Source: Candidatus Poribacteria bacterium (lineage in GTDB: Bacteria; Poribacteria; WGA-4E; WGA-3G). Taken from it: a stretch of 64,000 nt of DNA. The position numbers and the translations under genes were made by a program. Below are positions 45,319 through 53,466 of this stretch, in pieces. Numbering within the stretch: position 1 is the stretch's first letter; every line of letters starts with the position of its first letter. Below the pieces are notes generated by a model. It searched no databases. It was not told the origin of the DNA and saw only the letters and a list, made by a program, of their open reading frames with translations. The stretch spans positions 448,001-512,000 of the forward strand of contig OZ219753.1 of assembly GCA_964291315.2 (NCBI GenBank), written 5' to 3'.

Positions 45319-46707
45319 ATGAGAAGGACAATGTTTGTTCTGTCAACTGTTGCGGTGCTGATGTTTTCGGTTGCTCAGTTAGCAGCGGCGCAATGGAAGG
45401 CGAACCCTGTAACGAATCAGACCAATGAGAGTTTGTATGTGATCCATTCGACGTGGCGGCCTGCGAAGGCGGGCATTCCGAGCGGGTTTCGGACGCGCGG
45501 GTATTATCGTCTGTCGGCGGGTGAGACGCGTAAGTTTTATTCGTGGTCAGATAACAGCATCTACTTCCATATCTCGCGTTCGGGTGAGGCGATAAAACCG
45601 AAGAGTGGCACGTTGACGTTTGATTTTTGGATTCATCCGCTTCGTTCGTTTATGATAGTCTCGGATGAGCTGAGTGCGGCTGTGAAGTTGTCTGATTTGA
45701 GTTATGTGAATCGTCCTCGTGCTGGTTTTGTTCGCGAGGATGGTTTTATGAAGTATCCGGGTCGTTCTGTAGTGACTATCACGTCTAGTTGGGTATCTGC
45801 GGTGCCGGAGGCGCCGGACACTGGCACTGTTGTGGATCCGCCTGTTGCTGGCAATGGTGGTGGTTCTGATGGTACGCCTCCCCCTACTACTACCCCTACT
45901 ACCACTACTGTGCCTATTGTCACTCCGCCGGATCCACCTCCGCCCGAGGGCATGGTATTGATCCCTGCGGGTGAGTTTCAGATGGGCAGCAACGATGCGG
46001 AATCTGGCACGGATGAGCAGCCCGTTCATACTGTCTACGTGGATGCGTTTTATATGGACACGCATGAAGTGACGAATTTGGACTTCAAGCGTTTTGTGTT
46101 GGCGAACCCGCGGCAGAAGAGCCGGATTCCGGACAACTTGCACAATGGAAACTACCTATATCATTGGGATGATTCGAACAACTATCCTGCGGGCAAGGCG
46201 AACCATCCTGTGAGCCATGTGAGTTGGTATGCTGCGGTGGGGTATGCGAAGTGGGCAGGCAAACGGCTGCCGACGGAGGCGGAGTGGGAGAAAGCCGCAC
46301 GCGGTGGCAAGTCTGGGCTGAAGTATCCGTGGGGAAACACGATTAGCAGCACACAGGCGAACTACGGCCGTAATGTCGGTGGGACGACTGCAGTGGGTGC
46401 GTATGCTGCGAATGGGTATGGTCTGTATGATATGGCGGGGAATGTCTGGGAGTGGTGTCTGGATGCGTATAACAAGGACTACTATTTTAGTTCGCCTTCT
46501 CGCAATCCGTTGTCAGACGTGAACACGCTATCCAATGTAGACCTGATATTAGATAACTATACACAAATAAAGTCGTCCCGCGTCTTGCGTGGCGGCTCCT
46601 GGGACACTACAGCCCAGTTCGTGCGGGTCGCCAGCCGCTACTACGGTACGCCAACGCTCACGTACGACAACTACGGTTTTCGTTGTGCGAGGTCTGTATC
46701 GCCCTGA
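45319..46707 (+). CDS. DGR target protein 1: signal peptide, unknown N-terminal domain, Pro/Thr linker, FGE-sulfatase (CLec-fold) domain with C-terminal VR
   Basis: FQMGS, HEVTN, RLPTEAEWEKAARGG, LYDMAGNVWEW, RVLRGGSW...GFRC; directly upstream of avd/RT. Confidence 0.93.
   Translation: MRRTMFVLSTVAVLMFSVAQLAAAQWKANPVTNQTNESLYVIHSTWRPAKAGIPSGFRTRGYYRLSAGETRKFYSWSDNSIYFHISRSGEAIKPKSGTLTFDFWIHPLRSFMIVSDELSAAVKLSDLSYVNRPRAGFVREDGFMKYPGRSVVTITSSWVSAVPEAPDTGTVVDPPVAGNGGGSDGTPPPTTTPTTTTVPIVTPPDPPPPEGMVLIPAGEFQMGSNDAESGTDEQPVHTVYVDAFYMDTHEVTNLDFKRFVLANPRQKSRIPDNLHNGNYLYHWDDSNNYPAGKANHPVSHVSWYAAVGYAKWAGKRLPTEAEWEKAARGGKSGLKYPWGNTISSTQANYGRNVGGTTAVGAYAANGYGLYDMAGNVWEWCLDAYNKDYYFSSPSRNPLSDVNTLSNVDLILDNYTQIKSSRVLRGGSWDTTAQFVRVASRYYGTPTLTYDNYGFRCARSVSP
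46576..46692 (+). repeat. DGR variable repeat VR1
   Basis: Between TGG and GGTTTT all differences from the reconstructed AAC-rich template fall at A positions. Confidence 0.92.
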
Positions 46708-46732
46708 GTCTTTACTACTTAACATATTATAC

Positions 46733-46757
46733 CCCACGCCTGCTATGCAGGCGTGGG
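46733..46757 (+). other. GC-rich hairpin/cruciform downstream of VR1
   Basis: CCCACGCCTGC-TAT-GCAGGCGTGGG, perfect 11-bp stem about 25 nt after the target stop; no U-tract. Confidence 0.75.
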
Positions 46758-46811
46758 CGGCCCAAAATCAGCACTTTACTTAACTGATAATTACTTATTT
46801 AATACATCAAA

Positions 46812-47159
46812 ATGCCAGCTTCCACAGTTCAAGCTGTCCCTAAACTCTACGATGTGATTATGTGGCTGCTCGGACGCGTCGAAAGATTTCCGCGCTCCCA
46901 AAAGTTCACCCTCGGCGATAGAACCATCACTCTCGCCTTGGACACCCTCGACGTGCTCATCGAAGCCACCTATACGCGAAAACGGTTACATTTACTTCAG
47001 AGAGCCAACGTGCAGTTGGAGAAACTCCGGTATCTCATCCGTTTATCTCATGACTTCAAGCTCCTCTCTACAAAACAGTACGCATACATCTCTCAAGAGG
47101 TCAATGAAGTCGGCAAACTGATAGGAGGCTGGATACGCAGCCAATCTACTGCATCATGA
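46812..47159 (+). CDS. avd: DGR accessory variability determinant (four-helix bundle)
   Basis: 115 aa, basic, [12 protein letters not shown]...LRYLIRL...[13 protein letters not shown]-coupled to RT. Confidence 0.92.
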
Positions 47160-51140: not shown

Positions 51141-51446
51141 ATGAAAGTCGATTTTACGCAATCAGGCGGTTTTCTGGGGGGATGCCGCGGGTGTGAACTT
51201 GACACCGCAAAGCTGCCTGCAGACACCGGGGAAAAACTGGTAGACCTAGCAAAAGCGAGCGGAATCTCGGCATCAGGGACCTTTTTCTCGGCATCGGGCC
51301 GCGATCTTCAGCAGTATGATATTACAATCCACGATGGATACTCCGAGATATCTGTCACCTTTGACGATGAGACGCTTCCACCGGCTGTGCAACCGCTTAT
51401 CGATTATCTACAAAAACACGCTCGTCCCAAAACCTTAAAAGACTAA
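51141..51446 (+). CDS. Emfourin-like protealysin inhibitor
   Basis: SGGFLG...RDLQQYDITI...LPPAVQPLIDYL, directly after the M4 protease. Confidence 0.85.
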   Translation: MKVDFTQSGGFLGGCRGCELDTAKLPADTGEKLVDLAKASGISASGTFFSASGRDLQQYDITIHDGYSEISVTFDDETLPPAVQPLIDYLQKHARPKTLKD

Positions 51447-51575
51447 GACTTGGGCCCTGTGTTCCTTTCCTCTAGGGACAAGCTCCTTCCCTTCGGTGGA
51501 GATGAGCCAAAGATAAAATCCGGGGCGTGGTGGCAGGTAGGCTTCCGCTGATAGCTATCACGCCCCTCTTATCTA

Positions 51576-51673
51576 CTGCCTGCAGGAGGAAACTCCGATT
51601 TCCGACGGCACAATAGATGCCAAGTCTGCTATAATAGTTATAGCGGTAGGGCGACGGCAGCGCCTTGTAGCAT
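51576..51673 (+). repeat. ~98-bp direct repeat, copy 1
   Basis: CTGCCTGCAGGAGGAAAC...TAGATGCCAAGTCTGCTATAATAG...GGGCGACGGCAG; matches 53481-53578. Confidence 0.85.
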
Positions 51674-51768
51674 GAACTGGCACGTTGGGCAACTTAACCC
51701 TATTTTATGCCACTTCCGCTATGCAGGTGTGGGCAATCTAACAATCAACGCATAAAACGAGGTGAAAC

Positions 51769-53466
51769 ATGTCTAAATGGAAATTGACGATTGTTGCTTT
51801 ACTGAGTGTCGCTCTCTGTCGCTGCCTCCAAGCGGAAGAGACAGATAACGGAACTCCGGAGGACACCGCTCCTGCGGGCATGGTGTTGATCCCTGCGGGC
51901 GCGTTTCAGATGGGTAGCAACGATGCGGAAGATGAGCAGCCGGTTCATACCGTCTACGTGGATGCGTTTTATATGGACACACATGAAGTGACGAATGCGG
52001 ACTTCCAGCGGTTTGTGTTGGCGAACCCGCAGTGGCAGAAGAGCCGGATTCCGGCCAACTTACAAGATGGGTCTTACCTATCTCATTGGGATGATTCTAA
52101 CAACTATCCTGCGGGCAAGGCGAATCATCCTGTTGTTTATGTGAGCTGGTATGGTGCGGTGGCGTATGCGAAGTGGGCGGGCAAACGGCTCCCCACAGAG
52201 GCAGAATGGGAGAAAGCTGCACGCGGTGGCAAGTCGGGTCTGAAGTATCCCTGGGGAAACACGATTAGCAGCACACAGGCGAACTACGGCAAAAATGTCG
52301 GTGGGACGACGGCAGTGGGTACATATCTTGTGAATGGATACGGTCTGTATGATATGGCGGGTAATGTCTGGGAGTGGTGTCTGGATGAGTATAATTGGAA
52401 CTTCTATACTATTTCCCCGGTCCGTAATCCGCTGTCAGGTGCACCCAATATCAAGTGGTTATTAGATAACTATACAAATATTGATAGTAACCGCGTCTTG
52501 CGTGGCGGCTCCTGGTACCTTACGGCTCAGAGCGTGCGGGTCGCCTACCGCGGCGGCATTCCGCCTACGTTCTCGGTCAGCACCGACGGTTTTCGTTGTG
52601 CGAGGACTGTATCCCCTTCGGATGCTGGCGAGGGGACGGGTCCTGGTGCTGCCCCTACTGCTCCTGTGCCTAGTGTCACTCCCCTGCCACAGGAGCTTCC
52701 TGCTGCGCCCGAGGGCATGGTGTTGATCCCTGCGGGCGAGTTTGAGATGGGCAGCAACGATGCGGAATCTGACACGGATGAGCAGCCCATTCATACTGTC
52801 TACGTGGATGCGTTTTATATGGACACACATGAAGTGACGAATGCGGACTTCCAGCGTTTTGTGTTGGCGAACCCACAGTGGCAGAAGAGCCGGATTCCAC
52901 GCAACTTACACAATGGGTACTACCTACATTATTGGGATGATGATAACAACTACCCTGCGGGCAAGGCGAACCATCCTGTTGTTGAAGTGAGTTGGTATGC
53001 TGCTGTGGCATATGCGAAGTGGGCAGGGAAACGGCTGCCTACAGAGGCGGAGTGGGAGAAAGCCGCACGCGGTGGCAGGTCGGGGTTAAGGTATCCCTGG
53101 GGAAACACGATTAGCAGCACACACACGAACTATGGCAAAAATGTTAATGATACGACGGCAGTGGGTGCGTATCCTGCGAATGGGTATGGTCTCTATGATA
53201 TGGCGGGGAATGTAGAGGAGTGGTGTCTGGATGGGTATGACGAAGACTTCTATACTATTTCCCCGGTCCGTAATCCGTTGTCAGGTGCGCCCAATATCAA
53301 GTGGTTATTAGATAACTATACAAAAGTTAATTCGTCCCGCGTGTTGCGTGGCGGCTCCTGGCTCGATGCAGCCCGGAGCGTGCGGGTCGCCAACCGCAGC
53401 GCCGATACGCCGGCGTTCACGGGCAACAACCTCGGGTTCCGTTGTGTGTGGTCTGTATCCCCTTGA
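51769..53466 (+). CDS. DGR target protein 3: signal peptide plus two FGE-sulfatase (CLec-fold) domains, each with a VR
   Basis: GAGGTG RBS, signal peptide, two domains joined by a Pro/Ala/Thr linker. Confidence 0.93.
   Translation: MSKWKLTIVALLSVALCRCLQAEETDNGTPEDTAPAGMVLIPAGAFQMGSNDAEDEQPVHTVYVDAFYMDTHEVTNADFQRFVLANPQWQKSRIPANLQDGSYLSHWDDSNNYPAGKANHPVVYVSWYGAVAYAKWAGKRLPTEAEWEKAARGGKSGLKYPWGNTISSTQANYGKNVGGTTAVGTYLVNGYGLYDMAGNVWEWCLDEYNWNFYTISPVRNPLSGAPNIKWLLDNYTNIDSNRVLRGGSWYLTAQSVRVAYRGGIPPTFSVSTDGFRCARTVSPSDAGEGTGPGAAPTAPVPSVTPLPQELPAAPEGMVLIPAGEFEMGSNDAESDTDEQPIHTVYVDAFYMDTHEVTNADFQRFVLANPQWQKSRIPRNLHNGYYLHYWDDDNNYPAGKANHPVVEVSWYAAVAYAKWAGKRLPTEAEWEKAARGGRSGLRYPWGNTISSTHTNYGKNVNDTTAVGAYPANGYGLYDMAGNVEEWCLDGYDEDFYTISPVRNPLSGAPNIKWLLDNYTKVNSSRVLRGGSWLDAARSVRVANRSADTPAFTGNNLGFRCVWSVSP
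52489..52605 (+). repeat. DGR variable repeat VR4 (internal)
   Basis: All differences between TGG and GGTTTT fall at template A positions. Confidence 0.92.
53335..53451 (+). repeat. DGR variable repeat VR5
   Basis: Core differs only at A positions; 3' end GGG TTC CGT TGT GTG TGG has three non-A differences. Confidence 0.9.

Follow-up and report, generated by a model that had tools for sequence, protein, structure and literature searches.

A two-copy cellular diversity-generating retroelement with FGE-type targets in Candidatus Poribacteria, and a cassette whose template repeat is fused to a variable repeat

From which template are the variable repeats at this locus written? The region studied, positions 45319-53466 on the + strand of a 64,000-nt stretch of DNA from a Candidatus Poribacteria bacterium (the whole stretch is called the window here), belongs to a diversity-generating retroelement (DGR). 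The original prediction, made from the letters of the window, implied a self-contained cassette diversifying five repeats. That picture had to be given up; the 3′ half of the template repeat (TR) and most of the downstream RNA are missing from the window, and the template that fits lies on C3, one of the four contigs (C1-C4) of the source genome, G000. The reading that I favor, with a probability of roughly 0.7, is that of a two-copy cellular DGR whose window TR was lost by a join to a variable repeat (VR), the VRs having been copied from a template with the sequence of the C3 TR.

Is the window element a DGR at all? It was found that the window carries one of two copies of a cellular DGR with the gene order target-avd-RT-TR (RT, reverse transcriptase), and the system of the genome as a whole is a DGR by definition. 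The window element has the DGR architecture B2 (avd-RT-TR) with FGE-type targets. The parts needed here are these (ORF, open reading frame; T9SS, type IX secretion system):

44586..48400, + strand: duplicated segment, 97.15% identical to G000:C3:35555-31735(-), containing an ORF with a T9SS tail, target 1, avd, RT, and the TR position
46812..47159, + strand: avd (accessory variability determinant), an ORF of 115 aa
47156..48214, + strand: DGR reverse transcriptase of 352 aa, whose start overlaps the avd stop (ATGA)

An avd gene and an SQ-signature RT flanked by three FGE ORFs had been predicted, and the family searches and RT motifs bear this out. The avd ORF matches Pfam bAvd (E 1e-21, 77.9 bits against a cutoff of 40) and NCBIfam NF033474 DivGenRetAVD (112.7 bits, cutoff 80). 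The RT ORF matches Pfam RVT_1 and has IGNLTSQ at residue 199, with SQ in motif 4, and YVDD at residue 231. In a tblastn comparison with the annotated brt of the Bordetella phage BPP-1, it shows 36.8% identity over 96% of its length (E 2e-48), and other phage DGR RTs also match. The best PDB chain is 8ub7 (4e-62), which I take to be the BPP-1 bRT complex, while the best group II RT reaches 1.6e-22. A placement of the RT with group II intron or retron RTs had been named as a finding that would speak against a DGR; the RT is neither a group II intron maturase (TIGR04416, 147.5 bits, cutoff 300) nor a retron RT (NF038233, 47.6 bits, cutoff 235) and matches DGR RTs best.

How well do the repeats fit one template? 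A repeat finder and alignment revealed six copies of a ~119-nt repeat in the window, starting at 46574, 48284, 49019, 49778, 52487, and 53333. The five copies that had been predicted were located correctly to within 2 nt; the one at 48284-48402, a TR/VR chimera, had been overlooked. In the following lines, mismatches are scored against the intact TR at G000:C3:31733-31851(-), and the core means TR positions 28-103, which comprise 44 non-A and 32 A positions.

46574..46692, + strand: VR1; 16/34 A and 1/85 non-A mismatches; core 15/32 A, 0/44 non-A; no indel
48284..48402, + strand: TR/VR chimera, starting 70 nt past the RT stop; positions 1-59 equal the C3 TR, positions 60-119 are VR-like, and the copy ends with GCGAGG
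49019..49131, + strand: VR2, degenerate; 20/34 A and 7/85 non-A mismatches; core non-A 7/44; 6-nt deletion
49778..49899, + strand: VR3; 16/34 A and 6/85 non-A mismatches; core non-A 1/44; 3-nt insertion
52487..52605, + strand: VR4, internal; 23/34 A and 5/85 non-A mismatches; core 22/32 A, 0/44 non-A; no indel
53333..53451, + strand: VR5; 21/34 A and 3/85 non-A mismatches; core 19/32 A, 0/44 non-A; no indel

The A-to-N signature is real, and the differences of the VRs are strongly enriched at template adenines. The core of VR1, VR4, and VR5 deviates solely at A positions, as had been stated, and the alignment gave the opposite of the second result that had been named as damaging to the call, a lack of enrichment at template adenines. 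Decay has gone furthest in VR2 and VR3, both in target 2. At the DNA level, the FGE domains that carry the repeats are 86-89% identical, so that the word "near-identical" in the original prediction was too strong.

The intact TR was found by a whole-genome search with the copy at 48284, and it shares the unique 5′ flank of that copy. It is 119 nt long, contains 34 adenines, ends with GCGAAG, and lies within no long ORF; a second RT gene, 99% identical to that of the window, adjoins it. The template that had been reconstructed from the window VRs equals this real TR letter for letter. Its 12 AAY codons, counted correctly beforehand, allow 15^12 = 1.3e14 variants, and five more TR codons with first- or second-position adenines raise this to ~1.3e17 (the terminal AAG codon is excluded).

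How large is the family that fits this TR? The TR gave 40 BLAST matches in the source genome, namely the TR itself, the chimera, and 38 others, which fall into the following classes:

Core non-A mismatches 0-1 of 44: 10 copies, with 13-23/32 A mismatches
Core non-A mismatches 2-3 of 44: 6 copies
Core non-A mismatches 4-10 of 44: 12 copies
Core non-A mismatches 13-17 of 44: 10 copies

With a cut-off of <=3/44 core non-A mismatches for a candidate true VR, there are 16 VRs in 14 ORFs on C1, C3, and C4; for several, the distance to either RT exceeds 100 kb. Six copies have no core non-A mismatch at all (0/44), while the 150-nt flanks of one copy typically match those of other copies at only 55-75% (median identity). 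A near-perfect match at non-A positions between such flanks indicates repeated copying from the TR rather than recent common descent. The same numbers bear on the idea that no retroelement is involved and that the repeats are paralogous domain ends under diversifying selection. Distant paralogs do vary more at TR adenines (16-23/32) than elsewhere (13-17/44), but this idea accounts neither for the six perfect copies in diverged surroundings nor for an A-rich non-coding master copy adjoining an Avd-RT pair, and the same signature recurs in two relatives of the same genus, G011 and G021, where TR and VR differ at 16 and 21 A positions, respectively, and nowhere else. It is already contradicted and hardly credible.

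At a threshold of E up to 1e-8, TR-like matches number 21 in the source genome and 0-5 in each of 40 other genomes sampled from the genus, 22 of which have none. On C4 (2728441-2733282), a 1614-aa ORF contains five FGE domains, all with a VR-like copy (2-8/44 core non-A mismatches) at their end; it has no signal-peptide-like start, and a separate single-domain ORF precedes it.

What, then, is the copy that follows the window RT? The chimera differs from the TR at 14 sites, all of them at A positions from 60 onward; the 10 adenines before position 60 are all intact, and 14 of the 24 after it are altered. In contrast to this intact 5′ part, each of the 12 ungapped VRs compared has 3-8 of the first 10 adenines changed. 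The 75-nt leader of the chimera is 94.7% identical to that of the C3 TR, and its end, GCGAGG, is of the VR type, whereas TRs end with GCGAAG. On the 3′ side, the chimera continues into a VR flank and an interdomain linker like those of the copy at 52487 (52489 in the original prediction), followed by two complete FGE domains. The ORF of target 2 begins inside the chimera. Homology to the region 3′ of the C3 TR resumes at window position 51447, just past the stop codon of an emfourin gene. Compared with C3, TR positions 60-119 and ~107 nt downstream are replaced by 3.1 kb, and the window cassette has no intact invariant TR. For the first 100 nt past the TR, C3 holds the sole copy in the genome.

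Most simply, the TR would have been joined to a VR by homologous recombination, and target 2 is best read as a 5′-truncated gene remnant fused to a TR remnant. An alternative is a two-step route, in which the TR gained a VR-type 3′ end before mutagenised cDNA of the sister cassette overwrote its 3′ half.

Which RNA elements did the window cassette retain? In four relatives of the same genus (G011, G021, G022, and G049), the TR also lies 3′ of the RT and ends with GCGAAG, and a conserved stretch comes after it. Two helices can be drawn in C3 and these four, that is, a 12-bp duplex between a strand just before the TR and one ~110 nt after it, and an 8-bp stem-loop between. In the five sequences, pairing is found in 95/100 cells, with compensatory changes in four pairs; shifting the partners by 1-3 columns lowers the pairing to 19-46%. 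According to Handa et al., processive cDNA synthesis in BPP-1 depends on a noncoding segment 3′ of the TR, to which Avd binds, RNA upstream and downstream of the TR are both required there, and a downstream Avd-binding stem-loop together with a distal upstream/downstream duplex is predicted in 207/278 Avd-bearing DGRs. The C3 TR retains all of these flanking elements. The window cassette lacks the stem-loop, and its two duplex strands are 3.1 kb apart:

48269..48280, + strand: upstream duplex strand AGGTTTCAAGCC, which pairs with the downstream strand and brackets the TR in intact cassettes
51447..51458, + strand: orphaned downstream duplex strand GACTTGGGCCCT, with one substitution, 3.1 kb from the upstream strand

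An Rfam search of loci L022 and L023 gave no match at E up to 1. In a further locus of a relative (L025, G022:C112, 2706-2822), the TR is without most of the adenines in its 5′ third that the other four TRs have, a mirror image of the window chimera. The RT was present in 3/24 same-genus genomes of a first draw and in 0/16 from other families of the order.

Could the copy at 48284-48402 still serve as the template of an autonomous window cassette? It occupies the place of the TR in the relatives, retains 20/34 adenines, and has kept its leader. However, its 14 non-A bases were copied by none of the 12 ungapped VRs, the best of which carries 8/14; moreover, it has the VR-type end, it is in frame with a protein-coding remnant, the stem-loop is missing, and the duplex partner is far away. 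This makes an autonomous cassette very unlikely. Taken together, the chimera, the absent stem-loop, the split duplex, and the unused bases suggest that the window cassette would be unable to supply a template. It is probably TR-defective and incomplete, and probably can be served only in trans.

Or is the chimera an error of the assembly at the 59-nt identical stretch, the true genome having an intact TR at this place and, elsewhere, a complete gene with three domains? Repeats that are 80-97% identical abound in the region, and the contig ends C3:1-13225 and C2:1-13224 overlap by 13.2 kb at 99.99% identity, which shows some redundancy of the assembly and means that C2 and C3 probably join. Read-derived data (Logan contigs from two runs of one study, in which paralogs map across each other) gave no check of the join. 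On the other hand, the assembly contains no second copy of positions 1-100 of the downstream RNA, no orphan 5′ gene part exists among the TR-like matches, and the genome is in only four contigs. Both RT variants occur at comparable depth in run X1 (454/1008 at the distinguishing sites). C3 was also considered as an alternate haplotype of the window region and rejected, since merely 26.6 of its 364 kb matches other contigs. An assembly error is, on balance, a small chance.

When were the two cassettes last active? The window and C3 copies of the RT differ at 8/1055 nt, six of the changes being silent and two altering an amino acid, and the avd copies have five differences; both avd-RT pairs are open, and both RT copies look maintained. 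Retrotransposition is an unlikely origin of the duplicate because these RT and avd differences are not adenine-biased. VR1 and its C3 duplicate differ at 26/34 TR-A positions and at 4/85 others, all four at the 5′ edge, while the remainder of the target 1 gene differs from its C3 duplicate at 34/1255 nt. Thus, at least one of the two VRs was rewritten after the duplication.

This divergence has to be set against the possibility that both cassettes are fossils, or at least that retrohoming into the window VRs has ceased, so that the VR differences record past activity. VR2 and VR3 with their indels and non-A changes, the 5/16 changes in the 3′ end region of VR5, and the truncated middle target gene would fit such a history. 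Both runs give one and the same VR4 unitig, which fits it as well, but this is weak since the contigs drop rare variants. In contrast, open avd-RT pairs with mostly silent RT changes, a C3 TR with all its flanking RNA elements, six copies without a core non-A mismatch, and duplicate VRs that, since the duplication, have come to differ at 26/34 A positions beside RT copies that are still 99% identical are not what a fossil leads one to expect. I regard an inactive system as unlikely, though it deserves more weight than the other explanations above.

Two tandem single-domain target genes on C3 (29210-29765 and 30350-30900) are 100% identical in their last ~560 bp, including the VR, and ~10% diverged upstream. 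Their identical VRs were considered as a DGR effect and rejected; the identity extends beyond the VRs into the downstream flank and is thus ascribed to gene conversion, a recent (partial) duplication, or an assembly effect or collapse.

Several points weigh against the reading of a two-copy DGR with a template lost in the window. The copies with 4-17/44 core non-A mismatches form a gradient, by which ordinary divergence of paralogs accounts for much of the family, and thus the count of true targets depends on the cut-off. The RNA helices rest on five related sequences and were derived from these same sequences, and the need for the downstream RNA has been shown for the Bordetella phage DGR only, as far as the account of Handa et al. 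goes. Not every cassette of the lineage is clean; in G022, 32 non-A mismatches separate the local TR from the VR-like copy that precedes avd. Finally, the chimeric join is read from the assembly, and the Logan contigs are fragmented by repeats, too much so to check it.

How would the two-copy system work? In the intact cassette, the TR would be transcribed together with its flanking RNA (the 12-bp duplex and the downstream stem-loop), and an Avd-RT would copy it into cDNA, misreading adenines. The mutagenised cDNA would take the place of the homologous VR of ~119 nt, which is located C-terminally in the FGE-type C-lectin (CLec) domains of exported proteins. In the window, a TR-VR join would have swapped TR positions 60-119 and ~107 nt for the 3′ half of a VR, two FGE domains, and the M4 peptidase and emfourin genes. 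The five window VRs would have been written from a template identical to the intact C3 TR, and if they are still rewritten, the template would have to come in trans from C3. A bolder version may be entertained, in which the one C3 TR drives in trans at least 16 VRs in 14 ORFs on three contigs, and the former sister TR, after acquiring a VR-type 3′ end, became an adenine-mutagenised recipient itself. I hold this version to be tentative and rather doubtful. If true, it would be the largest single-template DGR repertoire in the compared literature and a natural conversion of a TR into a VR, so far known there from engineered systems only.

What kind of proteins are diversified? The three targets and the genes around them are as follows:

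45319..46707, + strand: target 1, 462 aa; signal-peptide-like start, N-terminal domain, Pro/Thr linker, and one FGE-sulfatase/CLec domain
46733..46757, + strand: GC-rich 11-bp hairpin, 41 nt past VR1, with a folding z-score of -4.8
48292..49914, + strand: target 2, 5′-truncated, 540 aa; GTG start, no signal peptide, C-terminal FGE stub, and two full FGE domains
50024..51109, + strand: M4 peptidase gene, thermolysin-type (Pfam PF02868/PF01447)
51141..51446, + strand: emfourin gene (Pfam PF20242)
51769..53466, + strand: target 3, 565 aa; signal-peptide-like start and two FGE/CLec domains

All three long ORFs match Pfam FGE-sulfatase PF03781 (4e-65 to 1e-128), with five full domains in total. Their fold was assigned by sequence matches to solved structures, namely FGEs (6e-38) and TvpA (2y3c, 3.4e-14), so that the predicted FGE/CLec nature of the targets holds. 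True FGEs are defined by an active-site cysteine pair in the segment before GFRC. In the alignment to the FGE 6s07, the target sequence W---DTTAQF stands opposite FLCHESYC; it has no cysteine, and this segment is the VR. Judged from these sequences, the targets are binding modules and not catalytic FGE enzymes; the antibody-like repertoire and the recognition of hosts or glycans that had been proposed for them are guesses. Starts resembling Sec signals, judged by eye as was the missing lipobox mentioned below, were seen in two of the three window target ORFs; signal peptides had been proposed for the targets in general, which fits targets 1 and 3 and fails for the middle ORF. The N-terminal domain of target 1 has no Pfam match at E up to 10; Atlas clusters it as DUF1036-like at 0.90, which is a lead only.

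The setting is cellular, as had been proposed, and the gene content supports this; no phage structural family was found among the 37 other window ORFs of at least 130 aa, which include housekeeping and restriction-modification genes, a sulfatase, and glycosyl hydrolase-like genes. Several genes for DNA methylases, an HNH endonuclease, and a BsaWI-type restriction endonuclease lie amid housekeeping genes upstream of the DGR region (window 12156-13922 and 28900-32482), and tRNA-Val(TAC) and tRNA-Asp(GTC) lie directly 3′ of the last target gene (window 53839-54006). The M4 peptidase/emfourin pair (window 50024-51446) is situated between the DGR targets, within the 3.1-kb segment that replaces the 3′ half of the TR. 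Four ~24-nt palindromic elements resembling GTAGCATAACCTGTTAGGTTGTGC occur at window 44404-44480 and 45158-45290, flanking the left end of the duplicated segment; at <=3 mismatches, this palindrome has 45 matches genome-wide on both strands. A repeated sequence of ~60-200 nt with a long hairpin (window 51576-51695 and 53481-53600) lies beside many FGE-family genes of the genome, either 3′ or 5′, and may represent a terminator common to these genes or a REP-like element. As for hairpins following the VRs, only the flank of VR1 was positive (z -4.8), and none after VR2 to VR5 folds better than shuffled sequences. A scan for promoters and terminators gave counts at chance level.

Has such a system been seen before? 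According to Wu et al. (2018, PMC5758913), architecture B2 is avd-RT-TR, 19% of DGRs have FGE-sulfatase targets, one target has three tandem diversified FGE domains, the maxima are eight tandem targets and seven non-adjacent targets (Treponema), and remote targets are restricted to non-phage DGRs. The present DGR is like their B2 DGRs with FGE targets in its order target-avd-RT-TR, its AAC-rich TR, its C-terminal VR in an FGE/CLec domain, and its multiple and partly remote targets. It differs in having two cassettes, more TR-matching VRs (16 at the chosen cut-off) than the maxima given there, and one TR fused to a VR.

The TvpA protein of Treponema denticola, a DGR variable lipoprotein (Dore et al. 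2024, PMC10907252; Wu et al. 2018, PMC5758913), shares the FGE-type similarity given above and a fold in which the variable segment comes last, at the C-terminus. Unlike TvpA, the window proteins are much closer to true FGEs, have 1-3 domains each, and have no evident lipobox; moreover, the Treponema DGR has an HRDC accessory gene (architecture C in PMC5758913) and not Avd alone as here. In Thiohalocapsa PB-PSB1, as described by Dore et al. (2024, PMC10907252), the RT, accessory, and target genes are also duplicated within the genome, each class having one complete locus besides incomplete ones, and the VRs of the latter, degenerate loci agree at every non-adenine site with a TR located elsewhere, by which they are served in trans. 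There, the degradation is ascribed to transposons and MITE-like repeats and the targets are NACHT-type conflict-system sensors, whereas here the TR would have been lost by a VR join and the targets appear to be exported FGE-domain proteins. The BPP-1 DGR (mtd-avd-TR-brt) resembles the window DGR in its RT, its Avd, the adenine-specific transfer, and a similar duplex and stem-loop, but the window DGR is cellular, has its TR 3′ of the RT, and has many targets where BPP-1 has one, which are of the FGE type and not of the Mtd type of CLec. Duplicate cassettes and dispersed CLec paralogs have been described in cyanobacteria (Vallota-Eastman et al. 2020).

Cellular DGRs with FGE targets, remote targets, tandem domains, and degenerate duplicates have already been published, and thus the window is a new example and not a new system. 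In the literature compared, TR-VR recombination was met only in engineered E. coli systems, where it is a background event, and the supplementary tables of Wu et al. may hold similar cases. Against this literature, two things appear to be new: the loss of a template by fusion with a VR and the number of VRs that fit one TR. The locus would be a clean natural case of a template lost through a TR-VR join, in a genome whose family of TR-matching VRs is unusually large compared with relatives of the genus. The conserved TR-bracketing duplex and the stem-loop of this avd-RT-TR lineage add new sequences to the RNA elements that had been proposed from the structure of the Bordetella phage system. Should the organism prove culturable, the pair of a complete and a template-less cassette would be a ready-made test of trans action.

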